From contig CANQPE010000002.1 in assembly GCA_947625645.1 (NCBI GenBank), positions 22,981 to 86,980 of the forward strand: a stretch of DNA of 64,000 nt, written 5' to 3'. Position numbers and translations under genes: made by a program. Below, one piece after another: positions 19,007-60,147 of this stretch (the first letter of the stretch is position 1; every line of letters begins with the position of its first letter). Under the pieces are notes generated by a model, which saw nothing but the letters and a program-made list of their open reading frames with translations, made no database searches and had not been told where the DNA came from. This DNA is from an uncultured Clostridia bacterium. Lineage in GTDB: Bacteria > Bacillota > Clostridia > TANB77 > CAG-508.

Positions 19007-19071
19007 GGGACAATTAGGGACGTATCTTTTTTGTCCTTCAAGGACAAAAAAGATACGTCCCTAATTGTCCC
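19007..19071. repeat. Palindromic repeat element copy 1, short form
   Basis: gggacaattagggacgtatcttttttgtcc / ttca / ggacaaaaaagatacgtccctaattgtccc; perfect 30-bp arms; between convergent vanZ and engB, overlapping the engB stop. Confidence 0.9.
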
Positions 19072-19651
19072 TAGCTCTATGCTCCAAAAATTCCCATACT
19101 TTTTCTGTGTAAATTTTTCTTTCGGAAGAGAAAGGTAGAATGGGGATATCTTTCATGGGGTTTAACTTGCTTTGGATGTCTGCAACGGCAAGCTCCACTT
19201 TAGTAGGGGCAATTTTGTCAGCTTTATTGGTCAGAATCAGACAAGGCAATCCTGCTTGAATGATGTAGTTGTACATCATTTTATCATTTTCGCTAGGAAT
19301 GTGACGGATATCTACCAAAAATATCACGAAAGAAATTTGTTCACGGTGTTGTAGATAATATTCAATAAAATTTCCTACTTGTGCTTGTTCTTGTTTTGAC
19401 ATTTTACTATACCCATAGCCAGGTAAATCTACAAAATAAAAAAGGTTATCCATATTATAAAAATTGATTTGGCGCGTTTTTCCAGGCTCACTGCTGGTAC
19501 GTGCCAGATTTTTTCTTTGAATCATGGTATTGATAAAACTAGATTTGCCAACATTGGACTTGCCAACTAGTACAATTTCTGGTAAGCCATTTTGAGGGTA
19601 TTGGCTAGGTTGTACGGCAGATATTTCAAATTTTGGATTTTTGATATGCAT
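19061..19651 (-). CDS. engB: Ribosome biogenesis GTPase EngB/YsxC
   Basis: G1 GKSNVGKSS, G3 DLPGYG, NKADK. Confidence 0.9.
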   Translation of the reverse strand: MHIKNPKFEISAVQPSQYPQNGLPEIVLVGKSNVGKSSFINTMIQRKNLARTSSEPGKTRQINFYNMDNLFYFVDLPGYGYSKMSKQEQAQVGNFIEYYLQHREQISFVIFLVDIRHIPSENDKMMYNYIIQAGLPCLILTNKADKIAPTKVELAVADIQSKLNPMKDIPILPFSSERKIYTEKVWEFLEHRARDN

Positions 19652-21038: not shown

Positions 21039-21102
21039 GGAACAATTAGGGACGTATCTTTTTTGTCCCTGAGGGACAAAAAAGATACGTCCCTAATTGT
21101 CC
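21039..21102. repeat. Palindromic repeat element copy 2, short form
   Basis: Same arms, loop tgag; lies between the DUF1653 gene and the serS RBS. Confidence 0.9.
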
Positions 21103-21109
21103 TTTGGGT

Positions 21110-27140: not shown

Positions 27141-27205
27141 GGAACAAATAGGGACGTATCTTTTTTGTCCGTTAGGGACAAAAAAGATACGTCCCTATTT
27201 GTTCC
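27141..27205. repeat. Palindromic repeat element copy 3, short form with CAAATAGG variant arms, inside the spoVA operon
   Basis: ggaacaaatagggacgtatcttttttgtcc / gtta / gggacaaaaaagatacgtccctatttgttcc; lies between the spoVAC stop and spoVAD start. Confidence 0.9.
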
Positions 27206-27922: not shown

Positions 27923-28036
27923 AACTTATATCCATCCTTTCTAAGGCAAAAGTGTTTACCTTTACAAAATTTTCTGATAATATTTTTTACCGATTTTTGA
28001 AAAATTATACAAAATTGAATAACAAAATCATTTTTT

Positions 28037-30360: not shown

Positions 30361-30425
30361 GGGACAGTTAGGGACGTATCTTTTTTGTCCATTAGGGACA
30401 AAAAAGATACGTCCCTAATTGTCCC
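30361..30425. repeat. Palindromic repeat element copy 5, short form
   Basis: gggacaGttaggg left arm pairs with a T on the right arm (G·U in RNA); otherwise perfect. Confidence 0.9.
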
Positions 30426-30590
30426 AAACAGACACTAATTTGTTCGAGAGTTCTTGTAAAAAATGTTTACAAAAAAATGCGGAAATGATAAAATAAAAAA
30501 AATAAAAATTTGCACGAAACAGAAAGTTTGAATCGTTTTATAAATGAAAGAGGAAAAAAGGCAATTAAAAGGGGAGGAATAGAAAGGAAA

Positions 30591-31076
30591 ATGGAAAACC
30601 AAAAAATAAAAGAATTAGTAGAAACATATTCAGATATGATTATGAAAATTGCCTATCAAAACAGCTTTAATAAATCAGATAGTGAAGACATTGTTCAAGA
30701 AGTTTTTTTGAAGTTGATGAAAAACATAAACAAATTAGGAGAGGACAACAATTATATAAAGGCATGGCTAATTAGAGTGACAATAAATTTAAGCAAAGAC
30801 TATAACAAAAGCGCTTGGTATAAAAAGGTAAGAGCTATTGAAGAAGATAATCAAGAATATGAGTTTAACTCAGAAGAACAAGATGTTTTAAAGGAACTGG
30901 CAAAATTAAAACCAGTGTACCGAAATACCATTTATTTATACTATTATGAAGGGTACAGGATACATGAAATTGCCAAAATCTTAAATCAAAATGAAAATAC
31001 AGTAAGTTCCAACTTGACAAGAGCAAGAAAACAATTAAAAGGCATCTTAGAAGAAGGAGGTGAGCTGTATGCCTAA
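30591..31076 (+). CDS. ECF-type sigma-70 family RNA polymerase sigma factor
   Basis: Region 2 (DIVQEVFLKL...AWL) and region 4 HTH (IHEIAKILNQNENTVSSNLTRARKQL); stop overlaps the downstream start (ATGCCTAA). Confidence 0.8.
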   Translation: MENQKIKELVETYSDMIMKIAYQNSFNKSDSEDIVQEVFLKLMKNINKLGEDNNYIKAWLIRVTINLSKDYNKSAWYKKVRAIEEDNQEYEFNSEEQDVLKELAKLKPVYRNTIYLYYYEGYRIHEIAKILNQNENTVSSNLTRARKQLKGILEEGGELYA

Positions 31077-33260: not shown

Positions 33261-33325
33261 GGGACAATTAGGGACGTATCTTTTTTGTCCGTTAGGGACA
33301 AAAAAGATACGTCCCTAATTGTCCC
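33261..33325. repeat. Palindromic repeat element copy 6, short form
   Basis: Perfect arms, loop gtta; lies between the paralog-2 stop and rsmB start. Confidence 0.9.
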
Positions 33326-45353: not shown

Positions 45354-45359
45354 TGTCTT

Positions 45360-45457
45360 GGGACAATTAGGGACGTTTCTTTTTTGTCCCTCAGGAACAA
45401 TTGGGGACAGACCTTTGGAGCATGGGGGACAAAAAAGAAACGTCCCTAATTGTCCCC
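45360..45457. repeat. Palindromic repeat element copy 7, long form (cgtttc arm variant, 35-nt internal insert)
   Basis: gggacaattagggacgtttcttttttgtccc ... gggacaaaaaagaaacgtccctaattgtccc; the insert contains a half-site-like ggaacaattgggga. Confidence 0.85.
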
Positions 45458-45475
45458 GAAAAGAAAGGAAGAAAT

Positions 45476-46399
45476 ATGAAGGAAGAGAAAAAGGCTACGC
45501 GCCAAAGCTATGGAGAGGCGTTAGTAGATTTGGGAAAACAAAATCCGAATATTGTTGTATTAGATGCAGATTTAGCAAGTGCCACAAAAACAGAATTGTT
45601 TGCCAAGGCATATCCTGACCGTTTTTTTGATATGGGAATTGCGGAAGCAGATATGATGTCAACCGCTGCAGGAATGGCCACTTGTGGCAAAATTCCATAT
45701 GCAAGTACATTTGCTATGTTTGCCGCAGGAAGGGCATATGACCAAATACGAAATAGTATTTGTTACCCAGAATTACCAGTTAAAATTTGTGCAACCCATG
45801 CAGGAATTACCGTAGGGGAAGATGGAGCAACCCATCAAATGATAGAAGACCTATCTTTAATGCGTACATTACCCAATATGACAGTTTTGTCAGTAAGTGA
45901 TGATGTACAAACAAAGTGGGCTGTAAAGGAAATAGCAAATTTACAAGGTCCAGTATATTTACGTTTATCTCGATTAGCAACCAATGTGCTATATGAAGAA
46001 AATCAAGTATTTGAAATTGGAAAAGCTGTGCAATGGGGCAATGGAACAGACGGTACCATTTTTAGTACAGGTGTGACAGTGGCCGAAAGTCTAAAGGCAC
46101 AAGAGCAGTTAGAACAAAAAGGAATCCATGTCAGAGTGGTAGATATGCATACCATAAAGCCAATTGATAAAGATATGATTATTAAGGCGGCAAAAGAAAC
46201 AAAACGCCTTGTTTCTGTAGAAGACCATAATGTGATAGGAGGTTTAGGTAGTGCAATAGCAGAAGTTTTAACAGAATATGAACCCAAACATTTTATTCGA
46301 TTGGGTATTCCAGATACCTTTGGAAAATCTGGAAAAGCAGTGGAATTGATGAAATTTTTTGGCATCACAGCAGATAATATTATGAAGCAGTGGAGCTAG
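45476..46399 (+). CDS. Transketolase C-terminal subunit (pyrimidine-binding and C-terminal domains), orphan
   Basis: IAEADMMSTAAGMATCGKIPYASTFAMFAAGRAYDQIRNSI; no N-terminal TPP-binding subunit gene adjacent; the ORF-track start at 45401 runs through the repeat. Confidence 0.8.
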   Translation: MKEEKKATRQSYGEALVDLGKQNPNIVVLDADLASATKTELFAKAYPDRFFDMGIAEADMMSTAAGMATCGKIPYASTFAMFAAGRAYDQIRNSICYPELPVKICATHAGITVGEDGATHQMIEDLSLMRTLPNMTVLSVSDDVQTKWAVKEIANLQGPVYLRLSRLATNVLYEENQVFEIGKAVQWGNGTDGTIFSTGVTVAESLKAQEQLEQKGIHVRVVDMHTIKPIDKDMIIKAAKETKRLVSVEDHNVIGGLGSAIAEVLTEYEPKHFIRLGIPDTFGKSGKAVELMKFFGITADNIMKQWS

Positions 46400-46462
46400 G
46401 GACAATTAGGGACGTATCTTTTTTGTCCCAATTGGACAAAAAAGATACGTCCCTAATTGTTC
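46399..46462. repeat. Palindromic repeat element copy 8, short form
   Basis: Arms as in the family, loop aatt; starts at the last base of the tkt stop codon. Confidence 0.9.
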
Positions 46463-46488
46463 CAAAATAGAAAGGATGGGAATGAAAA

Positions 46489-46722
46489 ATGGAAAATAAA
46501 CAAGAAAAAATGGGAGAAAAAGTGGTAAACACAGTGCAAAAGGCAAGTGTGATTATCTCTGGAAAAATTGAAGAAATGAAAGGAACTAATCCAGAAAAAG
46601 CAACATATTATACACAAAATCTACAACAAATACATGAAAAAGTCAATAATGAATTACTTGGTTCAGAAGTGATTGAAATATTAGATACAATTATCAATAT
46701 GCAAAGTGATTTATTATTATAA
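46489..46722 (+). CDS. Hypothetical 77-aa protein
   Basis: ORF only; no recognisable motif. Confidence 0.25.
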   Translation: MENKQEKMGEKVVNTVQKASVIISGKIEEMKGTNPEKATYYTQNLQQIHEKVNNELLGSEVIEILDTIINMQSDLLL

Positions 46723-46906
46723 AGAGTAGTAATTAGTTGAAAAAAAGAGTAAAAAAGTAAAATATGGAAAAAAAACAAAATATTCCACTGTTTTTTTGGG
46801 AAAGAGGTATTGCAAAAAAGAGCATTTATTGGTATGATAAAAGCAGAAAGTAGTAAAAATCTCTTTCCCAATTTGATTTTGCATCTTAAGAAGGGATGGA
46901 ATAAAA

Positions 46907-47593
46907 ATGATAGAGTTTAGAAATGTAAGTAAAACATACGATACAGGCACAGATGCCGTAAAAAATGCAAACTTTATAATTGAAAAAGGAGAGTTTGCGT
47001 TTTTAGTAGGTACCTCAGGAAGTGGAAAATCAACGTTAATTAAACTCATATTAAAAGAAGAAGAACCAACATCAGGAAATATCATTATTAATGGAAAGGA
47101 TACTACCTATTTGAAACCAAGCCGAATCCCATATTTAAGAAGAAGTATGGGCGTGGTTTTTCAAGACTTTAGGCTATTGCCAGATAAAACGGTATATGAC
47201 AATGTGGCATATGCAATGTATATTGTAAGAGCAACGCCGAGACACATAAGAAGGCAAGTACCAATGATATTATCTATGGTGGGGTTGAGTCATAAAGCAA
47301 AAATGTATCCCAATGAATTATCTGGAGGAGAACAACAAAGAGTAGCGCTTGCCAGGGCGTTAGTCAATTCTCCCTCTATGTTGATTGCAGATGAGCCAAC
47401 AGGAAATCTAGACCCAGAAACAGCATGGGACATTATGACATTATTAAATGAAATTAATATGAGGGGAACAACCGTTGTTGTGGCAACACATGCGAAAGAT
47501 ATCGTTGATAAAATGAAAAAAAGAGTGATCCATATTCAAAATGGCAATATCGTACGAGATGACAAAAAAGGTGGGTATGATTATGAAATATAA
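46907..47593 (+). CDS. ftsE: Cell-division ABC transporter ATP-binding protein FtsE
   Basis: Walker A GTSGSGKST, LSGGEQQR signature, Walker B LIADEPTGNLD. Confidence 0.9.
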   Translation: MIEFRNVSKTYDTGTDAVKNANFIIEKGEFAFLVGTSGSGKSTLIKLILKEEEPTSGNIIINGKDTTYLKPSRIPYLRRSMGVVFQDFRLLPDKTVYDNVAYAMYIVRATPRHIRRQVPMILSMVGLSHKAKMYPNELSGGEQQRVALARALVNSPSMLIADEPTGNLDPETAWDIMTLLNEINMRGTTVVVATHAKDIVDKMKKRVIHIQNGNIVRDDKKGGYDYEI

Positions 47594-48503
47594 CATATTA
47601 GGATATTTAATAGGTGAAGGGTTCAGCAATGTCTTTAAAAATAAAAAATCAACAGGTGCCTCATTAGTCATTATGTGTGCAACAATGATTATTTTTGGTG
47701 TTTTTCTTATTTTAGGAGAGAACATCAACCATTTTGTTGATGATATCAAATCAGAACAAGGCTTTCAGGTGTTTATTAAAGTAGATGCCACGCAAGAAGA
47801 AATTGAAAAGTTTGGAGAAGATATTAGGAGCATACCAGGTGTTAGCACAGCAGAATTTATTTCAAAAGAAGATGGTCTCAACAGAATGAAGGAACGATTA
47901 AAAGATGATAAAGGTGTATTAGATGGTTTTAATGTAGAGGCGTTTCGTGCATCTTATATGGTAAAAATCACAGACCTAGAACAAAGTCAACAAATACAAG
48001 AGCAAATTAAGAAAATTGAAAACTATGTTAGAATTACAAGTAGTGATGAAACCATAACGGCGTTGGTTCGTTTGGCAAATGGTATACGCATTTTTACAGG
48101 TGCTATTTTATTGTTATTAATCATAATTTCTATTTTCATCATTTCAAATACCATTAAGTTAACAGTACACGCAAGAAGAAAAGAAATATCGATTATGAAA
48201 TATGTAGGAGCAACCAATAACTTTATTCGTTGGCCTTTTATTGTAGAAGGTATGATTATTGGAGTTATTTCTAGTGCCATTTCCATTGCGATTGTAGGCG
48301 GGGCATATAACTTTATTGCAACAGAGCTAGTGAATGCATCTTTCATGAAAATGATAGGGATGAGTTTAGTTGGCTTTAGTGAAATGCTATCTTCTATTAT
48401 AGTGGTGTATATGCTATTAGGAATTGGAATTGGTGCCATCCGGAAGTGTTATTTCTATGAGGAAATATTTAAAAGTATAAAGGAGTTTGGTAGCTATGCG
48501 TAA
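47583..48503 (+). CDS. ftsX: Cell-division permease FtsX
   Basis: Four TM helices with a large extracellular loop; start overlaps the ftsE end. Confidence 0.8.
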   Translation: MKYNILGYLIGEGFSNVFKNKKSTGASLVIMCATMIIFGVFLILGENINHFVDDIKSEQGFQVFIKVDATQEEIEKFGEDIRSIPGVSTAEFISKEDGLNRMKERLKDDKGVLDGFNVEAFRASYMVKITDLEQSQQIQEQIKKIENYVRITSSDETITALVRLANGIRIFTGAILLLLIIISIFIISNTIKLTVHARRKEISIMKYVGATNNFIRWPFIVEGMIIGVISSAISIAIVGGAYNFIATELVNASFMKMIGMSLVGFSEMLSSIIVVYMLLGIGIGAIRKCYFYEEIFKSIKEFGSYA

Positions 48504-49779
48504 GATTTTATGTATGGTACTCATTTGCTTGTTATGTTTTGGCATGTCATTTGTAGAGGCAGTCGATAGTGAAAATGCAGTAGGAAATACAACGGCAAAT
48601 GCAACCGATTTGCAAAAGACGCAACAAGAAATGCAAGAACAAATTCAGCAGGCAAACGAAGAGCTTTCCGTCATACAGTTAGATATTACGGAAAACATTG
48701 AGCAAGTGCAAAAATTAGATGAAAAAATAGAAGCAGCAGAAGCTGAACTAGCAACAACATCAGAACAAGCGCAAGTTTTGCAACAGACAATCCAGGGATT
48801 GGAAGAAACACAAAAAACAGAACAAGAAAAATATGATAAACAAAAAGAATTATTTGAAGAACGTGTTGTCGCATTATATGAAGCTGGAGATACACAATAT
48901 TTAGATGTATTACTACACTCTGAAAATGTAACAGATTTTATTTCTAGTTACTTTATTATATCAGAAATTGCAGATTATGATGCAGATATTTTAAATACAA
49001 TTGGCGAAAGAAAACATAATATTGAAATTACAAAAACAAAGCTAGAAAAACAAAAAGAACAATTGGCAATCATTGTAGAAAAACGAACCAGAACAGCAAA
49101 GGTCTTACAAACCACAAAATTACTAAGGGAAAATTATATTTCAAAATTATCTGAACAAGAAAAACAAACACAGGAGAAAATTGAAGCCTATCATCAGGCA
49201 TTAAAAGAAGTGAATCAGCAAATGATTGAACTGGCTAAACAAGGGCTTGAGACAGCATATATAGGCGGCGAGCTAGCATGGCCAGTGCCAGGCTATACGC
49301 AAATTAGTTCCAAATATGGGATGAGAGTTCATCCTATCACAAAAGTGTATAAATTACATACCGGTGTAGATATTTCTGCACCAATGGGAGCAAATTTTGT
49401 TGCTGCCAATGACGGAATCGTAATAAAAGCGGGGTACAACAGTGCTTATGGTAACATGGTTGTAATTGACCATGGAGGTGGAATTTCCACATTATATGCA
49501 CATGGTTCTCAAATTTTAGTGCAAGTGGGAGAGCAAGTGACAAGAAACCAAGCCATTTTAAAAGTAGGGTCAACAGGCTATTCAACAGGACCACATGCAC
49601 ATTTTGAGGTAAGAAAGCAAGGTGTTGTTACAAACCCAATGCCATATATTACGAGTGGACTTGTACCAAATTCTGAAGAAGATAAAGCTGAAAAGGAAAA
49701 TCAAACCAAAGAAAATGCAGTACAAAATAATACTGTGGAAGAAAATATGGTGGTACAAAATACAAATCAAAATGGGTAA
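48496..49779 (+). CDS. Coiled-coil M23 peptidase (EnvC/PcsB-like, FtsEX-associated)
   Basis: Signal peptide, long coiled coil, C-terminal M23 domain HTGVDISAP...DHGGGISTLYAHGS...GPHAHFE. Confidence 0.8.
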   Translation: MRKILCMVLICLLCFGMSFVEAVDSENAVGNTTANATDLQKTQQEMQEQIQQANEELSVIQLDITENIEQVQKLDEKIEAAEAELATTSEQAQVLQQTIQGLEETQKTEQEKYDKQKELFEERVVALYEAGDTQYLDVLLHSENVTDFISSYFIISEIADYDADILNTIGERKHNIEITKTKLEKQKEQLAIIVEKRTRTAKVLQTTKLLRENYISKLSEQEKQTQEKIEAYHQALKEVNQQMIELAKQGLETAYIGGELAWPVPGYTQISSKYGMRVHPITKVYKLHTGVDISAPMGANFVAANDGIVIKAGYNSAYGNMVVIDHGGGISTLYAHGSQILVQVGEQVTRNQAILKVGSTGYSTGPHAHFEVRKQGVVTNPMPYITSGLVPNSEEDKAEKENQTKENAVQNNTVEENMVVQNTNQNG

Positions 49780-49829
49780 AATTTGTGCTACATAGGGATG
49801 ATATTACACTAGAAAGGAAAGGTAAGCCA

Positions 49830-51098
49830 ATGAGAATCTTAGGAAAAAAAATACTAGGGATGCTTTTAATTATGATGATAATAAGTTGGACGAATGTTGT
49901 GTTGGCATTGGATGAAACAGCTTTAAACAATCAAAAAGAGAACAATAATCAAAAAATACAGGAAACAGAAGCAGAAAAAGAAAAGGTGCAAGAGTTAAAA
50001 AGTGAGACGGTAAAGCAAGTAGAAGAATTAGACAGCCAAATTGATGAATATCAAAGTCAAATTAGTAGTTTGGATGGTCAAATTGCAGAAGCAAATACGA
50101 AAATTCAAGAAACAACAGCGAAATTAGAACAAGCACAAAAAGATTATGAAAATCAACAAAAAATGTTGGAAGAGAGAGTGGTTGCTTTATATGAAGCAGG
50201 AGAAACTACGTATTTAGATGTGTTGTTGTCTTCAGAGAGTGTGACAGATTTTATTTCTAGTTATTATGTCATTTCTGAAATTGCACAATGTGATGTTGAT
50301 TTATTGAATGAAATTGACTTCAAGAAAAAGGAAATAGAGACAACGAAACAAGAGTTAGAAGCAAGTAAAAATCAGTTAACATCAGCCAGAACAAATAAAA
50401 AATTAGTTGCTTCTCAATTAGAAGCCACCAAAACAGAAAAGCAAAATAAAGTGGCACAGTTATCTGAACAAGAGCAACAATTGCAAGCTCAAATTGATGA
50501 AATCAAAAAAGATAATGTTTCAATTGACCAACAAATTCAATCATATAAAGCAGAGTTAAAGCGTAAAATGGAAGAAGAGTTACGAAGAAGAAAACAACAA
50601 GAGGAAGAAGAAGCCAGAAGAAGGAAAAGTGAAGCTAACGCGGGAGGGGGCACTACTTCAAGCGGTTCTTCAGGGACAACCACCGGAACCAGTTCAAGTG
50701 GATTTATCCATCCCGTGCCATCTGCATATGCTACAGTCACGACGAAATGGTATTATTCAAATGGAAGTGTTCATGGCGCAGTAGATTATGGCTCTGGCGG
50801 AATTGCTGGTCAACCAGTTTATGCGGTGGCAGATGGCATTGTGGCGCAAACCGCTGCACTTACAACAAGTTATGGTAATTATATAATTATTATGCATTAT
50901 AATGGTTTATATACATTATATGCACATGGGCAACAGGGGTCGATTACGGTTTCAAAGGGGCAACCGGTCAAACAAGGGCAACAAATTATGAAAGTAGGAA
51001 GTTCAGGGAATTCTACAGGACCACATTTACACTTTGAAGTCAGAACAGATCCAGGGTTGTACAGCAACCGAAAAAATCCATTAAATTATTTGCCATAG
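49830..51098 (+). CDS. Coiled-coil M23 peptidase, tandem paralog with G/S/T-rich linker
   Basis: Same architecture; M23 motifs HGAVDY...GPHLHFE. Confidence 0.8.
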   Translation: MRILGKKILGMLLIMMIISWTNVVLALDETALNNQKENNNQKIQETEAEKEKVQELKSETVKQVEELDSQIDEYQSQISSLDGQIAEANTKIQETTAKLEQAQKDYENQQKMLEERVVALYEAGETTYLDVLLSSESVTDFISSYYVISEIAQCDVDLLNEIDFKKKEIETTKQELEASKNQLTSARTNKKLVASQLEATKTEKQNKVAQLSEQEQQLQAQIDEIKKDNVSIDQQIQSYKAELKRKMEEELRRRKQQEEEEARRRKSEANAGGGTTSSGSSGTTTGTSSSGFIHPVPSAYATVTTKWYYSNGSVHGAVDYGSGGIAGQPVYAVADGIVAQTAALTTSYGNYIIIMHYNGLYTLYAHGQQGSITVSKGQPVKQGQQIMKVGSSGNSTGPHLHFEVRTDPGLYSNRKNPLNYLP

Positions 51099-51194
51099 GT
51101 ATTGACAAACAAAACATAAAATATGATATAATAGGAGGCGGAACTTCTTCCGCCTAATTTGTTTTAGGTGGGGGACAAGAAAGGATGAGGAAAT

Positions 51195-52412
51195 TTGGAA
51201 AAACATACTGTATATAAAGTTTATAGAACGATTATGCTCATTATCATTACTGCTTTTGTGACATTTATGTTAACAACGGTTGGGATATATGCTTATATCA
51301 AAAATGATGGCAACTTGTTTTTGGTGAACAAACAAGAAATTGGTGGCATTACTTCAGAATTATATACATACAAAAACATTATTGATCAATATTATCTAGG
51401 AGAAGTGGATGAAGAAAAATTAGAAGAAGGTGCTATACGAGGCTATATAGAAGGACTAGGAGATCCCTATACAGAGTATATTTCAGAAGAAGAAATGGAA
51501 GATTATATGCAAGACACCTTAGGAAACTACGTAGGTATTGGTGTGTATATGGCAAAAGACAAAGAAACAAACTACGTAAAAATTATATCATTTATAGAAA
51601 ATTCACCTGCAGAAAAAGCAGGGCTTTTAGTGGGCGATTTTATTGTTGGATTGGACGATAAAACTTATACAGCAGATGAGATGGATGAATTATCTGATGA
51701 CATCAAAGGGGAAGAAGGCACGAAAGTAAAATTGACCATTTTAAGAGGAACAGATACAAAAGAATTTACAGTAAAAAGAGAAAAAATCAAAGTAAACCCA
51801 GTAGAAGGAAAAATCTTAGAAGAGAATATTGGTTACATTGCATTTACATCTTTTGATGAGACGACAGCAGAAGATTTTAAGGAGAAATATGACGAATTAA
51901 GAGCAGAAGGCATGCAGTATTTAATTATGGATTTAAGAAATAATGGTGGAGGGCTTGTTGACCAAGCCTTAAAAATTGCAGACTATATTGCGGAAAAGGG
52001 CAGTGTTTTATTATATGAAGTGGATAAGAAAGGAAACGAAGAAATTGAAAAATCTAAAAATGATCCAATTGTTAATGTTCCTGTCTGCATTTTGACCAAT
52101 AAAAATACAGCAAGTGCGTCTGAAATACTAGTAGGAGCATTACAAGATTTAAAAAAAGCTAAAATTGTAGGAACCACAACCTATGGCAAAGGTATCATAC
52201 AAGAAATATTATCTGTAAAAGACAGTGGAGGCATTAAAATTACAACACAAGAATATCAAACGCCAAACCATCATAAAATTCATAAAGTGGGAATTGAACC
52301 AGATGAGAAAGTTGAATTACCAAAAGATGTAGGAAATGTATTAACGGTGCCAGAAGAAAAAGATACCCAACTAAACAAAGCAAAAGAAGTAGTTAAAAAG
52401 ATTGAAACATAG
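51195..52412 (+). CDS. ctpA: Carboxyl-terminal processing protease (S41 family) with PDZ domain
   Basis: PDZ (GDFIVGLD), S41 catalytic region (MDLRNNGGGL, TASASEI); TTG start. Confidence 0.8.
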   Translation: MEKHTVYKVYRTIMLIIITAFVTFMLTTVGIYAYIKNDGNLFLVNKQEIGGITSELYTYKNIIDQYYLGEVDEEKLEEGAIRGYIEGLGDPYTEYISEEEMEDYMQDTLGNYVGIGVYMAKDKETNYVKIISFIENSPAEKAGLLVGDFIVGLDDKTYTADEMDELSDDIKGEEGTKVKLTILRGTDTKEFTVKREKIKVNPVEGKILEENIGYIAFTSFDETTAEDFKEKYDELRAEGMQYLIMDLRNNGGGLVDQALKIADYIAEKGSVLLYEVDKKGNEEIEKSKNDPIVNVPVCILTNKNTASASEILVGALQDLKKAKIVGTTTYGKGIIQEILSVKDSGGIKITTQEYQTPNHHKIHKVGIEPDEKVELPKDVGNVLTVPEEKDTQLNKAKEVVKKIET

Positions 52413-52439
52413 CATGTTTAATCTAGGGAGGAACAGAGT

Positions 52440-53048
52440 ATGAATTTAGCAAATAAACTAACAATTTTTCGTGTCATTCTTGTACCGATTATGGTAATTG
52501 TGCCATTTTTGGGAATTGAGGGAAAATTGTATGGAATTCCTATTGCCAATCTAGTTATGGATTTGATATTTATCATTGCTTCTATTACAGATAAATTAGA
52601 TGGTTATATTGCAAGAAAAAAGAATCAAATAACAACGTTTGGAAAATTTTTAGACCCATTGGCAGATAAAATACTTGTATTAGCAGCAATGTTATTGTTA
52701 GTAGAAATGCAAAAATTGCCTGCTTGGATTCCGATTATTGTATTATCAAGAGAATTTATTGTATCAGGGTATCGATTGGTTGCAGTAGAGAGAGGTAAGG
52801 TCATTGCAGCGTCTAAGTGGGGCAAATTAAAAACGGTGACACAAATGGTAGCTATCATTTTGGCATTTTTAGATACGTATGCCTATGGAGAGTGCTTCTT
52901 AGGATTATTACGAGGTTCAGATTTTGTGTTAAACTTAATTGTCACTGTGATGATGATCATTCAAACTATTGCTACCATATTTTCTGGAATTGATTATGTA
53001 AAAGATGGAAGAAAATTATTTTTTCAAAAAATGTTGACAAAAAGATAA
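52440..53048 (+). CDS. pgsA: CDP-diacylglycerol--glycerol-3-phosphate 3-phosphatidyltransferase
   Basis: CDP-alcohol phosphatidyltransferase motif DKLDGYIARKKNQITTFGKFLDPLADK. Confidence 0.85.
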   Translation: MNLANKLTIFRVILVPIMVIVPFLGIEGKLYGIPIANLVMDLIFIIASITDKLDGYIARKKNQITTFGKFLDPLADKILVLAAMLLLVEMQKLPAWIPIIVLSREFIVSGYRLVAVERGKVIAASKWGKLKTVTQMVAIILAFLDTYAYGECFLGLLRGSDFVLNLIVTVMMIIQTIATIFSGIDYVKDGRKLFFQKMLTKR

Positions 53049-53096
53049 ATGAGATTTAATATAGTATATAAAGTTTGAAAGGAAGGATGATAAAAC

Positions 53097-53573
53097 ATGG
53101 AAGATAAAGAAGTGATTTTAACACAAGAAGGGTATGATAATTTAGAAAAACAATTAAATATTCTAAAAACAGAAAAAAGAGCAGAAATTGCAGAAAGAAT
53201 TAAAGTGGCATTAGGGTTTGGAGATTTATCCGAAAACTCAGAATATGATGAAGCAAAAACAGCACAGGCAGAAAATGAAGTAAAAATTGTAGAATTAGAA
53301 AATAAATTAAGACATGCGAAAATCATTGATGAAAAAGATATCGATACAGAAACGGTTCAAATTGGTAATGTGGTTAGAGTCAATGATTTAGAATTTAACG
53401 AAAAAATAGAATACACCATTGTAGGTTCAACAGAAGTCAACTTAGCAGAAAACAAGATTTCAAATGAATCGCCACTAGGTGCAGCATTGCTAGGCGCTAA
53501 GAAAAACCAAGTTGTAGAAGTCAATGCCCCAGCAGGCATCATGAAATACAAAATTTTATCTATCAAAAAATAA
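53097..53573 (+). CDS. greA: Transcription elongation factor GreA
   Basis: N-terminal coiled coil with the acidic tip DLSENSEYD; C-terminal FKBP-like domain. Confidence 0.9.
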   Translation: MEDKEVILTQEGYDNLEKQLNILKTEKRAEIAERIKVALGFGDLSENSEYDEAKTAQAENEVKIVELENKLRHAKIIDEKDIDTETVQIGNVVRVNDLEFNEKIEYTIVGSTEVNLAENKISNESPLGAALLGAKKNQVVEVNAPAGIMKYKILSIKK

Positions 53574-53581
53574 GGAAAAAT

Positions 53582-53678
53582 GGGACAATCAGGGACGGTT
53601 CTTTTTTGTCCCTCAAGAGCAATTGGAGCTAGACCTTTGAGGCTTGAGGGACAAAAAAGAACCGTCCCTGATTGTCCC
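53582..53678. repeat. Palindromic repeat element copy 9, long form (caatcaggg/cggttc variant with compensated arms)
   Basis: 36-bp perfect arms gggacaatcagggacggttcttttttgtccctcaag / cttgagggacaaaaaagaaccgtccctgattgtccc; between convergent greA and deoD. Confidence 0.85.
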
Positions 53679-54403
53679 TAGCTGTTTTTAAGAGCTGCAT
53701 CTAGTGCTAGTTGTATCATGCGAGTAAGACCAGTTTCGCGTTCTTGGGTAGTGGCAACGGTGTCGATAAATTTTGAGTCAACCACTGTCATGAGACAACT
53801 TGCTTGTTTATGCAAGAGCTGTGCATTATAAAACAACGAAAACGCTTCCATTTCTCCAGCAATTAAATGTAAGTCCTTTGGCACACGCTTTAGATATTGG
53901 TCAAAATCAGTCGCATAAGGGTCAAACACATCTAAACAGGCAGTTTCTCCACGGTAGATTTGTAATTTTTTTTCTGTTGCTGTTTCTTGAATCATTTGGT
54001 TTAATTCATTACTTGCTTGCACAAAATGGCAATTGTCATTATTTAGGGTATAAGCATAATTTCCTTCACAATAGGTACCAGTAGATAAAATGATATCAAA
54101 TAACTTTAATTCAGGTAAATAGGCACCGCAAGAGCCAATTCGAATAATGGATTCTACTTCATAAAAGTGATATAGTTCATAACTATAAATTCCCATACTA
54201 GGCATTCCCATACCAGAAGCCATGATGGTGATTTCTTTTCCTTGATATGTCCCCGTATAGGCGTACATTCCTCTTACTTGATTAACAAGGCGAGCATTTT
54301 CTAAAAAATGTTCTGCAATGTATTTGGCACGTAAAGGGTCTCCGGGCATAATTACAGTTTTGGCGATTTCACCTAATTTTGCTTCATTATGTGGTGTTGG
54401 CAT
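53678..54403 (-). CDS. deoD: Purine nucleoside phosphorylase DeoD-type
   Basis: MPTPHNEAKLGEIAKTVIMPGDPLRAKYIAE...; start chosen at the ATG 7 nt after GGAGG (ORF track extends to 54460). Confidence 0.85.
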   Translation of the reverse strand: MPTPHNEAKLGEIAKTVIMPGDPLRAKYIAEHFLENARLVNQVRGMYAYTGTYQGKEITIMASGMGMPSMGIYSYELYHFYEVESIIRIGSCGAYLPELKLFDIILSTGTYCEGNYAYTLNNDNCHFVQASNELNQMIQETATEKKLQIYRGETACLDVFDPYATDFDQYLKRVPKDLHLIAGEMEAFSLFYNAQLLHKQASCLMTVVDSKFIDTVATTQERETGLTRMIQLALDAALKNS

Positions 54404-54536
54404 ATTCATTCCTCCTTTTGAGCATATTATATCAATAAATTTTAGGAAAAGCAATTGCAAAAAACAAATATTTATGGTATAACGTATATAGTAATTTTCT
54501 AGCAGATTTTTCGAACTAGGTTTTACTGAGGAAAGG

Positions 54537-55283
54537 ATGATAGAAAAAATGATAAAAGCATACGCAAAATCTGATGTTGGAAAAATAAGAGAGATTAACG
54601 AAGATGCTTTTTATATTTCAAATTCATTGGACGAACTGCAACTATATATGTTAGCAGATGGAATGGGAGGCTATAATGGCGGAGAAATAGCGAGTCAACT
54701 TGCCATTCAAACGGCAAAAAAATATATAGAAAGTAACTTTGATAAAATTGAAAAAGATAGAGATAGTATCATTCAGTTATTGGGCAGCAGTATGGAATAT
54801 GCAAACATGATTGTTTATGAAAAGTCAAAAGAAAATAAAGAATTAGAAGGAATGGGTACTACTTTAGAGTTGTGTTTAATATATAATAATAAAGCATATA
54901 TTGGCCATATTGGTGACAGTAGAATATATCGTATTCGTAAAGCATTTATTCGAAAATTAACACAAGACCACAGTTATGTGCAAAAATTAGTAAAAGATGG
55001 ACAAATTACCCAAGAACAAGCAGAACACCATCCGAAAAAAAATATGCTTATGAAAGCACTAGGCTGTAATGCTTTTGTTGAGCCAGATGTGATGGTAAAA
55101 GGATTTTTAAAAGACGATATTTTAGTCATGTGTTCAGATGGATTAACCAATTTGGTTAGCCAAGAGCAAATTTATCAAAGTGCTAGTGGCAATATAGAGC
55201 AGGCGACGAAAGATTTGGTACAGTTTGCAAATGATAGAGGCGGATATGACAATATTACAGTTGTCATTATAAAAAACATATAA
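54537..55283 (+). CDS. stp: PP2C-family Ser/Thr protein phosphatase
   Basis: PP2C motifs DGMGG, metal-binding Asp residues. Confidence 0.85.
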   Translation: MIEKMIKAYAKSDVGKIREINEDAFYISNSLDELQLYMLADGMGGYNGGEIASQLAIQTAKKYIESNFDKIEKDRDSIIQLLGSSMEYANMIVYEKSKENKELEGMGTTLELCLIYNNKAYIGHIGDSRIYRIRKAFIRKLTQDHSYVQKLVKDGQITQEQAEHHPKKNMLMKALGCNAFVEPDVMVKGFLKDDILVMCSDGLTNLVSQEQIYQSASGNIEQATKDLVQFANDRGGYDNITVVIIKNI

Positions 55284-55355
55284 CTAGCAACAACATTATC
55301 TTCTACGTCAAGCCGATTGTTTTTGACGAAGAAAAAAATAAGGGAGAGATTAAAA

Positions 55356-57371
55356 ATGATTTTAGAAGGGAATTTATTGGGAAATCGTTATGAAATACTT
55401 CAAAAAGTAGGAAATGGCGGAATGGCGATTGTATATAAAGCAAGAGATATTGTATTGAATAGAAATGTTGCCGTTAAAGTGTTAAGAGATGAATTTACAA
55501 CAGATGAAGAATTTATTAAAAGGTTTGAAACAGAAGCACAATCTGCAGCTAGATTAACACATGCGAATATTGTTTCTATTTATGATGTAGGCGTTGATGC
55601 CGGAATATATTATATTGTTATGGAACTTGTACAGGGTAAGACTTTGAAAGAAATTATTATTGAAGAAAATGGCCCATTACCTTGGAAATGGTCTTTGAAT
55701 GTAGCAATACAAATTGCATCTGCATTAGATATGGCACATCGTAACAATATTATTCATAGAGATATTAAGCCACATAACATTATTATTACAGAAGATGGTG
55801 TAGCGAAAGTAACAGATTTTGGGATTGCAAAAGCGGTATCTAATTCTACCATTACGGCATTTGGAACAACTATTGGTTCTGTCCATTATTTTTCACCAGA
55901 ACATGCACGAGGTGGTTACACAGATGCCAAATCAGACATATATTCTCTAGGTGTTGTGATGTATGAAATGTTGACAGGAAGAGTACCTTTTGATGCAGAT
56001 ACGCCTGTATCTGTTGCTTTAAAACACATGCAAGAAGAACCCAAAGAACCAATTGAGGTAAACCCTAATATTCCAACTGCAATTAATAAAATTATTATGA
56101 AAGCCATTCAAAAGGATCCTATGTTAAGGTACCAAACCAGCATGGAACTATTAAAAGATTTAAAAGAGGCGCTAAAAAATCCAAATGGAGATTTTGTTGA
56201 AGACATGCCATATGATAAAACAGCAAGGACACAAAAAATTGGAACAGAACCATATTCAAATCGAAGCCAAAAACAAGAACAAAGAGGATTGAAAGGTTGG
56301 ATCGCACAACATAAGAAGGCAAGTGTTTTTTTAGGGGTTGTTATTTTATTCTTTTTAGCATTTGGAGGAACAATGGCCTTTTTAAACATTACGAATCCAC
56401 CAGAAGTAGATATGCCAAATGTTGTAGGAATGCATAAAGAAGAAGCCAAAAGAGCAATTGAAGAAGCTAAATTGGTATATGAAGAGGAAAAAGAAGAATA
56501 TAATCAAGAGGTGGCAGAAGGGCTTGTTATTAGCCAAGACCCAGCTTATTTTGAAAGATACCATTCTGTCAAAGAAGGAAGCACCGTAAAAGTTGTTGTT
56601 AGTTTAGGAACAGAAAAAGCTACGGTTCCTAATGTGGAAGGAAAAGAAAAGCAAGAAGCTATCAAAATGATAGAAGATGCCAAGTTAAAGGCAGAAATTA
56701 TAGAAGAAACAAGCAAAACAATAGCAGAAGGACACGTCATTAGTCAAGAAGTTGAACCGGAAACAGAAGTATCTGCAGGAGATAGTATCAAAATCCATGT
56801 TAGTACAGGAACAGGAATTAAACAGATTACAATGTCAAGCGTAGTAGGAAAGACAGAAGAAGCTGCAAAAACAGAATTAGAAGGACTAGGCTTTAAGGTA
56901 ACAATAAATTATGAAGAAAATACATCAAAAGATAATGGAACTGTCCTAAAACAAAGTTTAGAAAGTGGAAAAGTTGTGGATGAGGGTACAGCAGTAACCT
57001 TAACTGTGAACAAGATTGCAGAATTAAAGACGGCAAAAATTACAGTGAATGTAAAATCATTATTAGGTGGAAAAGTAGAATATGAGGAAGAAGAGACATC
57101 AACCAATACGTCTAACACAAGCAATTCTACAAATGAAACCAACACCACAAATACAACAAAGCAAAAAAAGGTTAAGAAAGTTAAATTGGAAGTAAAAGTC
57201 AATGAAGATACTATTTTTTCAGAGCAAGTTGATCCAACGGCAACCAGCATTAATGCTGGAACAGCAAAAGGAACGGGAGTATCTAATATTAAAGTCTATA
57301 TTGATGGGGTTTTAAAGAATCAAGGACAAATTCGATTTAGCGAAGCAAATCCATCTTATACGGCAGAGTAG
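55356..57371 (+). CDS. prkC: Ser/Thr protein kinase PrkC with PASTA repeats and a Thr/Asn-rich extension
   Basis: Hanks kinase motifs (VAVK, HRDIKPHN, DFGIA), TM, three PASTA-like repeats. Confidence 0.85.
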   Translation: MILEGNLLGNRYEILQKVGNGGMAIVYKARDIVLNRNVAVKVLRDEFTTDEEFIKRFETEAQSAARLTHANIVSIYDVGVDAGIYYIVMELVQGKTLKEIIIEENGPLPWKWSLNVAIQIASALDMAHRNNIIHRDIKPHNIIITEDGVAKVTDFGIAKAVSNSTITAFGTTIGSVHYFSPEHARGGYTDAKSDIYSLGVVMYEMLTGRVPFDADTPVSVALKHMQEEPKEPIEVNPNIPTAINKIIMKAIQKDPMLRYQTSMELLKDLKEALKNPNGDFVEDMPYDKTARTQKIGTEPYSNRSQKQEQRGLKGWIAQHKKASVFLGVVILFFLAFGGTMAFLNITNPPEVDMPNVVGMHKEEAKRAIEEAKLVYEEEKEEYNQEVAEGLVISQDPAYFERYHSVKEGSTVKVVVSLGTEKATVPNVEGKEKQEAIKMIEDAKLKAEIIEETSKTIAEGHVISQEVEPETEVSAGDSIKIHVSTGTGIKQITMSSVVGKTEEAAKTELEGLGFKVTINYEENTSKDNGTVLKQSLESGKVVDEGTAVTLTVNKIAELKTAKITVNVKSLLGGKVEYEEEETSTNTSNTSNSTNETNTTNTTKQKKVKKVKLEVKVNEDTIFSEQVDPTATSINAGTAKGTGVSNIKVYIDGVLKNQGQIRFSEANPSYTAE

Positions 57372-57385
57372 TGAAAGGAAGTTGA

Positions 57386-58276
57386 ATGAAGCAAATAGAG
57401 GGATATATTATAAAACATATTGCCAATCAATATGTGGTTCAAACCAAGCAAGGTTTATACCAAGCAACGGCGAGGGGGAGATTGAAAAAGGAAGAAATCT
57501 CCCCTGTTGTAGGAGATAAAGTACGTATTTTAGTGGAAGAAGAAGAAACGAAACAAGCTGTCATTGAAGAAATTTTTCCCAGAACGGTTTTGATGAGACG
57601 TCCTAAAATAGCTAACATTACGCAGATGGTGTTTGTTATATCAAGTCAACATCCAAAGCCAGATTTGCTATTGCTAGATAAGCAGTTAGCATTGGCAGAG
57701 TTGAAACATATAAACAGTCTTATTGTACTCAATAAAATGGATTTAGATAAAAAACAGCAATTTCAGTCTATCAAAGAGATGTATCAAAAGATAGGGTATG
57801 AAATCATAGAAACACAGGCAAATGAATCTGTTGGAGTGCCAGAGCTAAAAAAGAAATTAAAAGGAAATGTCAATGTATTTTCTGGAAATTCTGGGGTAGG
57901 AAAATCAACGTTACTGAATCATATTTTTGCTAAGAATCTAACAGAAGAAGGAGAAATTAGCCAAAAAAATCAAAGAGGAAAGAATACGACCACAGCAATT
58001 CAATTGTATGAAATGGATGAAGATACATTCATTGCCGATACACCGGGTTTTTCAACTTTTGATGTTTCAGAGATTCTGGCAAATGAGCTGGATCAATGTT
58101 TTAAAGAATTTCAAAAGTATATCCCGAAGTGTCAGTTTGTAGGCTGTACCCATATTAAAGAAGAAACTTGTGGGGTAAAAAAGGCTATGCAAGAGGGAAA
58201 AATTACACAAGGGCGATATATCAATTTTTGTAAAATATATGAAGAATTAAAAGAAAAGGAGAAACGCAAATGGTAG
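57386..58276 (+). CDS. rsgA: Ribosome small-subunit-dependent GTPase A
   Basis: Circularly permuted GTPase (NKMD...GNSGVGKST), C-terminal Cys zinc knuckle. Confidence 0.85.
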   Translation: MKQIEGYIIKHIANQYVVQTKQGLYQATARGRLKKEEISPVVGDKVRILVEEEETKQAVIEEIFPRTVLMRRPKIANITQMVFVISSQHPKPDLLLLDKQLALAELKHINSLIVLNKMDLDKKQQFQSIKEMYQKIGYEIIETQANESVGVPELKKKLKGNVNVFSGNSGVGKSTLLNHIFAKNLTEEGEISQKNQRGKNTTTAIQLYEMDEDTFIADTPGFSTFDVSEILANELDQCFKEFQKYIPKCQFVGCTHIKEETCGVKKAMQEGKITQGRYINFCKIYEELKEKEKRKW

Positions 58277-58932
58277 AGGTATCGGCTTCTATATTGAATG
58301 TTTTACCGGGGAAAGAGACAGAAACTTTTTTAGCATTAGAAAAAGGGAAGACAGACTATTTTCATATTGATGTCATGGATGGGGTTTTTGTGGAAAAGAA
58401 CACATACGATAAAATGTTAGAAGCAGCATCCTATATAAAGAGAATATCCAATTTGCCATTAGATGTGCATTTAATGGTTAAAAATGTACCAGAAGCAGTT
58501 GATGATTTTGGAGCTTTAGCACCAAACCTGATTACGTTTCATTATGAAGCCTGCAGTTCTCCAGAAGAAGTCATGAAAGTGATACAGCAAATTAAGGGAT
58601 GGCATGCAAAAGTGGGAATCAGTGTCAAACCAGACACAGATGTTACTAAAATTTACCCATTTTTACCTTATGTTCATACTGTGCTAATTATGACGGTTGA
58701 ACCTGGAAAAGGTGGACAAACCTTTTTAAGTGACATGACACAAAAAATTCAAAAATGTCATAGCTATATACAAGAAAACGACTTAGAAATTGACATAGAA
58801 GTAGATGGAGGAATTAATCTCAAAACGGCAGATACAGTCAAAGCAGCAGGAGCTAATATATTAGTAGCAGGAACGGCAATCCTGAAAGCAGTTGACTTTG
58901 GAGAGATTATAAAAGAATTAAAAAAATCTTGA
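58270..58932 (+). CDS. rpe: Ribulose-phosphate 3-epimerase
   Basis: SILNVLPGK...HIDVMDGVFV...VDGGIN. Confidence 0.85.
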   Translation: MVEVSASILNVLPGKETETFLALEKGKTDYFHIDVMDGVFVEKNTYDKMLEAASYIKRISNLPLDVHLMVKNVPEAVDDFGALAPNLITFHYEACSSPEEVMKVIQQIKGWHAKVGISVKPDTDVTKIYPFLPYVHTVLIMTVEPGKGGQTFLSDMTQKIQKCHSYIQENDLEIDIEVDGGINLKTADTVKAAGANILVAGTAILKAVDFGEIIKELKKS

Positions 58933-58940
58933 CGTGACGG

Positions 58941-59038
58941 GGGACAATTAGGGACGGTTCTTTTTTGTCCCTCAGGAGCAATAGGGGTCAGATCTATGTA
59001 ATATTGAGGGACAAAAAAGAACCGTCCCTAATTGTCCC
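58941..59038. repeat. Palindromic repeat element copy 10, long form; it supplies the last ~14 codons and the stop of the tsaC-like gene
   Basis: gggacaattagggacggttcttttttgtccctca ... tgagggacaaaaaagaaccgtccctaattgtccc; the minus-strand reading GTIRDGSFLSLNIT* is the tsaC C-terminus. Confidence 0.85.
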
Positions 59039-59599
59039 TTGGCGTAATACGTGAGGAACGCCATCAATTACTTGTACGATGGTGGAAGCAATACCTAATT
59101 GACTATTACCGCCATCAATGATATAATCTACTTTTCCTTCAAAATGTTTTAAAATCATTTTTATATTTGTACCACTTGGTTGACCAGAAAGATTTGCGCT
59201 AGGGGCAGCAATAGGAACATTTGCATATGTAATTAATTTTTGAGCGATTTCATGAGAAGGCATACGAACTCCCACGGTATCTTGATTCGCTGTTACAATA
59301 TTAGGGACAATGTCTTTCTTTTTTAAAATCAAAGTAAGTGGTCCGGGAAAATATTTTTCCATTAATTTATATTCTACATCAGTAATATCTTTTGCAATTT
59401 GTTGAACCATTTCCATACTAGAAACTAATAGACTAATAGGCTTGTCTAAAGGGCGTTTTTTGACTTCATACAGTTTTTTAACAGCATCTGCATTGAATCC
59501 ATTTGTTCCAATACCATAGACTGTTTCTGTTGGAAAAATCACAAGTCCACCTTGCTGAATGATTTTGGCAGGGGTTTCTAAATCCATTATTGTATTCAT
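58994..59599 (-). CDS. tsaC: L-threonylcarbamoyladenylate synthase (TsaC/YwlC/Sua5 YrdC-domain protein)
   Basis: YrdC motifs (VIFPTETVYGIG, KPISLLVSS, SANLSGQPS); start at MNTIMDL after a GAAGG RBS. Confidence 0.75.
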   Translation of the reverse strand: MNTIMDLETPAKIIQQGGLVIFPTETVYGIGTNGFNADAVKKLYEVKKRPLDKPISLLVSSMEMVQQIAKDITDVEYKLMEKYFPGPLTLILKKKDIVPNIVTANQDTVGVRMPSHEIAQKLITYANVPIAAPSANLSGQPSGTNIKMILKHFEGKVDYIIDGGNSQLGIASTIVQVIDGVPHVLRQGTIRDGSFLSLNIT

Positions 59600-59766
59600 A
59601 TAGTAACCTTCTTTCATATATACTTTACCACAAAAAAGGAATTTTTGCAACGTATTTTTATGGTAAAATTATCAGTGATAAACAAAAGATCCAGTTAATT
59701 ATAGAAGCTACAAAAAAATAGCCTCTAATAATTAACTGGATTTTTGATGAATAAATCTTATGTAAA

Positions 59767-60147
59767 TTACGCGTTTGCATCTTTTATATTATCTTTTGTT
59801 TGCATTTTTAACATATCTACAATAAAAGAATTAATTAATTTTCGATGGTATAAATTTAGCTGTAAATAATTGTTAAAAAAATCTTCATCTAACGCCTTGT
59901 CTTGTTTAGAAAAATTACCATCAACTAATTCTTGAAACAAAAAATCAGCATCAATTTCTAATGTGTTGCAAAGATTAACTAAAGTAGTAACACTACCAAA
60001 AGAAATCCCTCTTTCTAATTGACTAATGTAACGAGTAGAAAGTTGTAACTTTTCAGCAAGTTGTTCTTGTGTGTAATTGTTTCGAGCTCTTGCTAATTTG
60101 ATTTTCTTACCGATGGTTTGGCGATAAGATTTTTCCTTTTCTTTCAT
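59767..60147 (-). CDS. XRE-family helix-turn-helix transcriptional regulator
   Basis: HTH IKLARARNNYTQEQLAEKLQLSTRYISQLERG; start at the ATG after GGAGGAGG. Confidence 0.6.
   Translation of the reverse strand: MKEKEKSYRQTIGKKIKLARARNNYTQEQLAEKLQLSTRYISQLERGISFGSVTTLVNLCNTLEIDADFLFQELVDGNFSKQDKALDEDFFNNYLQLNLYHRKLINSFIVDMLKMQTKDNIKDANA

Follow-up and report, generated by a model that had tools for sequence, protein, structure and literature searches.

The last 14 codons of a tsaC-like gene in an uncultured Clostridia bacterium are a translated portion of a short palindromic repeat, of which ten complete copies are dispersed in the window, the whole stretch of 64,000 nucleotides of genomic DNA that was analysed. 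This gene end was very probably generated by insertion of one member of the repeat family, with loss of the native tail of TsaC (estimated probability, about 0.85). The family consists of short interspersed palindromic elements resembling REP/REPIN and MITE elements, and would have spread in the source lineage after its split from the nearest sequenced relatives.

The 3' end of tsaC within a palindromic repeat

Bases 58941-59038 of the window form a near-perfect palindrome of 98 nt, referred to below as copy 10, which is located between the convergent genes rpe and tsaC and belongs to the long form of the repeat. Two 34-bp arms (58941-58974 and 59005-59038; 34 nt each, 100% complementary) enclose a loop of 30 nt (58975-59004), the sequence being GGGACAATTAGGGACGGTTCTTTTTTGTCCCTCA for the left arm, 30 nt between, and TGAGGGACAAAAAAGAACCGTCCCTAATTGTCCC for the right arm. 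The predicted RNA fold has an energy of -76 kcal/mol on the plus strand and -67 kcal/mol on the minus strand, with z of about -13.

The TsaC-like gene (threonylcarbamoyl-AMP synthase with the YrdC domain only) is encoded on the minus strand at 58994..59617, giving 207 aa as in the public protein P0001; its start codon is uncertain, and the mechanical ORF begins at 59650. The C-terminus of this minus-strand ORF (58994..59650) reads ...VPHVLRQGTIRDGSFLSLNIT before the stop, or in a longer form ...IDGVPHVLRQGTIRDGSFLSLNIT, and the peptide spanning the fused C-terminus in the translated ORF is ...QGTIRDGSFLSLNIT. Read on the minus strand from 59038, the right arm gives GGG ACA ATT AGG GAC GGT TCT TTT TTG TCC CTC, and the loop then contributes AAT ATT ACA TAG. 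All of the 14 codons (GTIRDGSFLSLNIT) and the TAG stop, from 59038 down to 58994, are element sequence, with the stop in the loop, which bears out the claim of the preliminary description that the last 14 codons of tsaC are a translated repeat. The ...VLRQ of TsaC enters the element directly and continues as GTIRDGSFLSLNIT to the stop, the element beginning with the codon for the glycine of the conserved LRQG. Since this Gly codon lies inside the element and the G-T-I of the element matches the TsaC family consensus G-[ST]-I, the position of the junction between tsaC and the element is uncertain by a few bases.

On the other side of copy 10, rpe (ribulose-phosphate 3-epimerase; 58270..58932, plus strand) is convergent with tsaC and its stop is not element-encoded but located 8 nt before the element, the spacer being cgtgacgg. 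Deletion of copy 10 in silico yields no sensible end of tsaC. Because only the 8-nt gap is present and removal of the element restores no sensible end, an insertion must have entailed loss of the native tail and stop of tsaC, at the same time or later.

The conserved part of TsaC was delimited by profile and structure alignments. PF01300 matched the protein at 7e-63 (211.7 bits) over the whole profile (1-178/178), the match ending at G187 of the 200-aa query, and TIGR00057 scored 216 bits (cutoff 123.2) with an alignment to residue 190. Alignments with the Sua5/TsaC structures in PDB stopped at query residue 188, the best being 6f87 at 1e-52. By these alignments the catalytic domain is complete through the LRQG glycine, and for this reason the 13 residues fused to it are most likely a neutral by-product.

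A family of ten dispersed palindromes

The arm 20-mer was counted in the window at up to 3 mismatches, and 19 occurrences were detected against 0 expected from 100 shuffles. Ten complete near-identical copies are present in the 64-kb window: seven are of the short form of 65 nt (arm, 1-5-nt loop, arm), and three are of the long form of 97-98 nt, of which the loops (25-30 nt) are homologous among each other and look like the start of a third, degenerate arm. The arm consensus is GGGACAATTAGGGACG(T/G)(A/T)TCTTTTTTGTCC(C), all ten copies open with GG(G/A)ACA(A/G)(A/T)T(A/C), and the ends of the element read GGGACA.../...TGTCCC. The arms are 30-36 nt in length and 97-100% complementary, and, in copies located at unrelated loci with unique flanks, carry 0-3 deviations from the consensus per 30 positions. 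Across the ten-copy alignment, 99.7% of the stem cells are paired, and in five pairs both positions are changed. None of 500 shuffles attained either value, and slid controls paired at 45-58%. The four one-sided arm changes are all located within the outer seven positions, and three of the four give G-U pairs on the plus strand. The predicted hairpin energy of the copies ranges from -55 to -76 kcal/mol (z about -13). The asymmetric loop of all three long copies (45360-45456, 53582-53678 and 58941-59038) has the same orientation on the plus strand, and this strand carries a positive GC skew throughout the window.

The element has no coding capacity. Frame 1 is open and reads G-T-I-R-D-(V/G)-S-F-L-S, frame 2 is also open and reads G-Q-L-G-T-Y-L-F-C-P, and frame 3 gives x-D-N-stop; owing to the palindrome, these three frames are alike on both strands. 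They account for the tail of TsaC, the RDN end of EngB before its stop, and the peptides recurring in the mechanical ORFs. The peptides RDKKDTSLIVP and GQLGTYLFCP correspond to the remaining two frames of the element, recur at most copies and lengthen some of the mechanical ORFs, for example that of rsmB, which is extended upstream from 33354 to 33285; the element had already been named as the source of these spurious extensions, and this is confirmed.

With respect to the class of element, the MITE-like features are the terminal inverted repeats, the length of 65-98 nt, the lack of coding capacity and the presence of ten copies in 64 kb, but none of the ten copies has a target-site duplication, the flanks containing no direct repeats of whatever length. 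The features shared with REP/REPIN elements are the inverted units, the long extragenic hairpin, the compensatory changes and, again, the lack of target duplication, but the tetranucleotide GTAG/CTAC was not found beside the hairpin. Indeed no tetranucleotide is common to the flanks, and CTA precedes GGG at 3 of the 20 ends only. No transposase was detected among the 40 window ORFs, all beyond position 18400, that were scanned with Pfam, and no gene for a RAYT (Y1 transposase) was found among the scanned ORFs of the 64-kb window. In architecture the element would be closest to REP doublets (REPINs) and to hairpin elements that lack target-site duplications and are moved by single-strand transposases. 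Membership in the REPINs is not claimed, because the GTAG signal is absent and no RAYT or other transposase occurs in the 40 scanned ORFs; with no transposase in these ORFs and no target-site duplications, the element is only putatively mobile.

Location of the copies with respect to genes

All ten copies are located at gene boundaries, eight of them 0-17 nt past a stop codon and three between convergent genes. Element-encoded residues are found in two real genes only, tsaC and engB. Copy 1 (19007..19071, short form of 65 nt) lies between a vanZ-like gene and engB, which are convergent, and supplies the last 11 nt of engB (aGG GAC AAT TAG). Copy 2 (21039..21103, short) lies between divergent genes, 20 nt ahead of the start codon of serS; the serS leader containing this copy is 490 nt in length, and no T-box was found in it by Rfam. 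Copy 3 (27141..27205, short) occupies the spacer between the same-strand genes spoVAC and spoVAD, and carries two changes that are mirrored in both arms. Copy 4 (28051-28115, short) is in a divergent region and is directly abutted by a 15-nt partial element end, TGGACAATTAGGGAC, at 28036-28050; partial arms also precede full elements in other genomes (L016, L017, L020 and L021).

Copy 5 (30361..30425, short) follows the stop of a DUF4179 anti-sigma-like gene at a distance of 12 nt, and copy 6 (33261..33325, short) that of a paralogous DUF4179 gene at 11 nt; copy 6 is upstream of rsmB and is the source of the spurious ORF extension there. The segment 28119-33325 is made up of a pair of tandem paralogous units, with a DUF4179 anti-sigma-like gene (65% aa identity) at the end of each and, in the second unit, an additional ECF sigma gene at 30510-31076. 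These units are bounded by copies 4, 5 and 6, and their homology extends precisely to the right end of the element and no further. Copies 5 and 6 are identical at 63 of 65 positions, and the flanking paralogous genes at 80-89%. This pattern suggests duplication by way of the repeats or, alternatively, repeated targeting of great precision; given their same position behind paralogues, the two copies may have been duplicated together with the genes instead of arriving by insertion.

Copy 7 (45360..45456, long form of 97 nt) lies downstream of a T2SSF (pilC-like) gene, 6 nt from its stop. The first G of copy 8 (46399..46463, short) completes the TAG stop (46397-46399) of the gene for the C-terminal half of transketolase. 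This half-gene (45476-46399) follows the pilC-like T2SSF gene, is bracketed by copies 7 and 8, and lacks the usual adjacent gene for the N-terminal half. Copy 9 (53582..53678, long form of 97 nt) lies between the convergent greA and deoD, its last base being the G of the deoD TAG. Copies 1, 8 and 9 share an AGCTA flank (19072-19076, 46394-46398 and 53679-53683), with an A/T run on the other side. Its presence at three of the 20 ends may indicate a preferred target.

The ends of engB and deoD

The engB/ysxC GTPase gene (19061..19651, minus strand) was firmly identified by TIGR03598 (213 bits). It ends in ...EHRARDN before its stop, and the TAG at 19061-19063 lies within copy 1 (19007-19071), to which 11 nt including the TAG belong. 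The claim that the engB stop is inside the element is therefore correct. The C-terminus of EngB reads ...VWEFLEHRA-R-D-N, and since the orthologue tails after VWxxLE vary, with 3-10 residues, nothing conserved has been lost. In the loci L050 and L051 of a relative (82% identity, same vanZ/engB synteny), the spacer is of 28 nt and contains an ordinary bidirectional terminator but no element. This terminator (ggaagaaa...tttcttcc with A and T tracts; L050 4790-4840, and likewise in L051) overlaps the engB 3' end in L050 exactly where the window has copy 1.

The same had been said of deoD, but here only part of the claim stands. The gene for the DeoD-type purine nucleoside phosphorylase (53678..54403, minus strand; NF004489, 235 bits) retains its native C-terminus ...LALDAALKNS; the protein ends in ...MIQLALDAALKNS and aligns to the very end of orthologues of equal length. 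The stop occupies 53678-53680, and base 53678 (the G of TAG) alone is within copy 9. The overlap of one base is real, whereas the stop is not located inside the arm. As removal of copy 9 gives AGC TA/A, still a stop, the statement on deoD is true only in the sense of this one-base overlap.

Comparison of TsaC tails and tsaC/rpe junctions

TsaC was searched against 5.8 billion proteins, and 119 homologues were listed at 68-79% identity. One protein, P0001 (207 aa), is identical and is annotated with the same tail; above 80% identity the source protein stood alone in this search. Nearly all of the alignments cover 92-93% of the query, and IRDG or SFLSL occurs in none of the 119 homologues listed. 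After LR(Q/E)G, most of the homologues have a tail of 10-21 residues reading [ST]-I-T-x-EQI..., and the four closest ones (76-79% identity) end as LRQGSL(K/T/I)I(E), the tails being SLKI in P0002, SLTIE in P0003, SLKI in P0007 and SLII in P0035. Among the 119 homologues listed, LRxG is followed by S in 94 cases and by T in 15, and then by I in 114. The fused tail in TsaC orthologues from element-free genomes, named in the preliminary description as the finding that would refute its claim, was sought and was not found.

The convergent arrangement of tsaC and rpe is also present in L043 (79%), with 25 nt between the two stops, in L001 (76%), with 59 nt, and in L005 (77%), where they overlap by 11 nt; all three syntenic junctions are free of the element. 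When the junctions of these relatives are aligned with that of the window, the latter is longer by 98 nt, which fall between the stop of rpe and the LRQ codons. Within 65 kb of DNA from relatives with 76-82% protein identity, no copy of the element was detected even with up to 3/16 or 8/30 mismatches allowed, and about ten copies would be expected there at the density of the window. Replacement of the native C-terminus after LRQ(G) by the element, as had been proposed, is supported by the lack of the tail in all of the 119 homologues, by the homologue, profile and structure alignments, which break off at 92-93% of the query or at residues 187-190 of 200, and by the element-free syntenic loci. 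The proposal that the insertion is later than the gene is likewise supported for tsaC by the homologue tails, the element-free tsaC/rpe junctions and the DNA of the relatives, although we infer the event from relatives that are only 76-82% identical.

In the rpe/tsaC spacer of L001 (3505-3565), the sequence GGGGACGCCCTTTTTTTTCCCT matches the inner arm of the element at 18 of 22 positions. Simple shuffling gave an equal match in 27 of 2000 trials, and the sequence is itself a T-run terminator; the match could be a coincidental terminator or a decayed relative of the element.

Distribution outside the window

A 16-mer of the element was used to scan the GTDB species representatives, a set that does not include the source genome. 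The scan gave 37 matches, which were mostly single and chance-like, and about ten real relatives. Related palindromes or arms were identified in about ten uncultured low-G+C gut genomes of Clostridia/Eubacteriales (L010, L015-L018, L020, L021, L035 and L039). Their arm reads GGGACAATTAGGGACG(T/G)TTCT.TTTG... and their AT-rich loops are longer; in L017, the related element fills the spacer between convergent genes. No match was obtained with Rfam 15 across the whole window, with the 25-nt degenerate arm pattern in JGI metagenome contigs, or with the 22-nt pattern of the element/tsaC junction in the same contigs. The element was not found when the literature was searched by sequence string, and a keyword search for RAYT/REPIN in Firmicutes returned nothing relevant. 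The repeat family of the window is apparently undescribed.

A plasmid or phage origin was considered and rejected: blastn of the element against plasmids and phages gave no match, and the single 16-mer present in four viral contigs lacks the palindrome and looks like chance or an unrelated motif. Among these, two 13-kb contigs carry it (L044, 6551-6566; L045, 6428-6443) about 10 nt inside the border between a variable half and a shared half of 6.5 kb.

Direct tandem repeats of the motif G(A/G)GACAATT(A/G)GGGACG are present in other Clostridia genomes. Three tandem copies with 36-nt spacing are found in L041 (3974-4061), and two units of about 40 nt lie upstream of an ABC permease gene in L016 (3900-3980) and L021 (about 4960-5040), where they adjoin the CodY-box-like sequence ATTTTCTGAAA. 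This arrangement hints that the arm of the element may also be a candidate protein-binding site.

Origin of the tsaC end

The preferred reading is that the element is or was mobile, was mobilised in trans without target duplication, and was tolerated only at gene boundaries. The surviving copies would on this account be found almost only there, mostly 0-17 nt past stops and often between convergent genes. At tsaC, a long copy would have come to abut the Q codon of the terminal LRQG, with loss of a short native tail and its stop; translation would then run through the proximal arm in its one stop-free frame and end at the TAG that copy 10 happens to carry in its loop. Besides the lack of a transposase in the scanned ORFs and of target duplications, the distance of the relatives compared (76-82% identity) and the position of copies 5 and 6, two further points weigh against this reading. 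Random insertion on its own does not account for the agreement of G-T-I with the family consensus, and an extra deletion is needed, since excision of the element restores no sensible end of tsaC. Survivorship would be the simplest answer to the former: only an insertion that spares the invariant Gly and lets the last strand continue in a compatible way would persist, and mimicry of the family consensus by G-T-I would explain the survival of the tsaC insertion.

Copies that are transcribed would form a perfect stem of 30-36 bp at mRNA 3' ends, which could protect or define these ends and, by its length, might serve as a substrate of RNase III. The ribosome on tsaC would have to melt the 5' arm and would stop in the loop; a lower output of TsaC as a consequence is speculative.

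A possible but clearly less probable reading, which overlaps in part with the preferred one, is that the palindromes are selected RNA hairpins that end, insulate or stabilise transcripts, the overlap with tsaC being a tolerated cost. It agrees with the placement of eight of the ten copies behind stops and of three between convergent genes, with the ordinary bidirectional terminator that takes the place of copy 1 in the vanZ/engB spacer of L050, and with the double changes that preserve the pairing of the stem. The higher conservation of copies 5 and 6 (63/65) than of their flanking paralogous genes (80-89%) points in the same direction. AUUUUCC and AUUUUUCC follow copies 1 and 9, respectively, on the strand of engB and deoD, but a U-run is found only after these two copies and only on the minus strand, most copies being without one. 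A terminator consensus scan of 45000-60000 flagged only the inner stem of copy 8. Moreover, copy 3 is in the spacer of the spoVAC-spoVAD operon and copies 2 and 4 are in divergent promoter regions, positions at which a strong terminator would be harmful or pointless, and the relatives manage without the element.

It is more doubtful that the repeats represent a REPIN-like family new to Clostridia, which as single-stranded hairpins would home to the 3' side of genes and replace the terminators of convergent genes until the host depends on them, and of which the loop stop in tsaC could throttle TsaC. This would agree with the AGCTA flank shared by three copies, two of which split a TAA stop into TA/G.../A; removal of copies 8 and 9 restores AGC TAA stops. 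The hairpin foot without GTAG/CTAC and the scanned ORFs without RAYT stand in its way. If the homing were true, the tsaC stop would be located inside the loop of a 34-bp stem of the RNase III type.

Still less likely, an ancestral ...LRQ-G-T-I..., the reading of 15 of the 119 homologues listed, would have been joined by microhomology to the element end GGGACAATT, so that G-T-I would be partly native and only RDGSFLSLNIT new. At least the GG of the native Gly codon (GGN) is also present in the element end, S (94) or T (15) and then I (114) follow LRxG in most of the 119 homologues listed, and the 15-nt partial element end abutting copy 4 indicates that irregular junctions occur. All ten copies, however, begin with GG(G/A)ACA(A/G)(A/T)T(A/C) and no native source of these bases is needed; furthermore, the four closest relatives read G-S-L and not G-T-I.

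That the tail is ancestral to TsaC and the repeat derived from the tsaC 3' end, or that the whole is a product of chance or assembly, has in its favour only that the sequence is from one genome, and is effectively refuted by the homologue tails (0/119 listed) and the dispersed copies, the palindrome recurring at nine other unrelated loci with unique flanks, related elements being located away from tsaC in other genomes, and 0 arm matches being expected by chance.

The odd end of TsaC is to be annotated as real sequence and not as an error, but its last 13-14 residues are not to be taken as a family signal; likewise, several ORF extensions in the source genome are repeat read-through.

Comparison with known repeats

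REPINs, or REP doublets, are described mainly from Proteobacteria, carry GTAG/CTAC at the foot of the hairpin, and are reportedly mobilised by RAYT transposases. The element of the window is similar to REPINs in that inverted units form one hairpin, and in its extragenic location, lack of target duplication, compensatory pairing and high copy density, but is different from them with respect to the foot of the hairpin, which is without GTAG/CTAC, and to the scanned window ORFs, among which no RAYT gene is found. The Correia elements of Neisseria are said to form RNase III-sensitive hairpins, to act in some cases as terminators, and to duplicate a TA target; such a duplication is absent at the copies in the window, and the sequences are unrelated. 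The palindromic elements of Rickettsia are reported to be inserted in-frame inside genes and translated as parts of proteins, whereas the element of the window is located at the extreme 3' end, and again the sequences are unrelated. Both the Correia and the Rickettsia elements are co-transcribed with neighbouring genes.

The closest parallels for the overlap with gene ends are QMITE1 and QMITE2 of Coxiella burnetii, which reach 1-50 bp into the 3' portions of functional genes (Wachter et al. 2018, PMC5896051). EnhC of one strain has acquired from a QMITE a C-terminal tail of 33 aa, with the stop just beyond the QMITE, and processing of the QMITE2 stem by RNase III was raised as a possibility (PMC5896051). 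Both these elements and that of the window are short, non-coding, hairpin-forming, interspersed and overlapping with gene 3' ends, but the latter is much shorter (65-98 nt), is an almost perfect palindrome and lacks terminal direct repeats; the sequence and the host phylum are unrelated. The enterobacterial RU-1, RU-2 and RU-3 of the ERIC/IRU type are imperfect palindromes of 103-168 bp that are found inside ORFs (Delihas 2007, PMC2759123). These are, like the element of the window, small intergenic repeats with open frames that enter annotated proteins, but they are proteobacterial and have no sequence relationship to it.

The donation of a C-terminus or a stop by a repeat is already well documented in other bacteria, and the tsaC fusion is an ordinary, expected side effect of such repeats. 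The family of the window, which comes from uncultured low-G+C Clostridia, is very dense (a copy every 4 kb across a 40-kb stretch) and unusual in its compactness and perfection; with its perfect hairpins, compensatory changes and lack of target duplications, it would be useful for studying the spread of repeats and the possible replacement of terminators.
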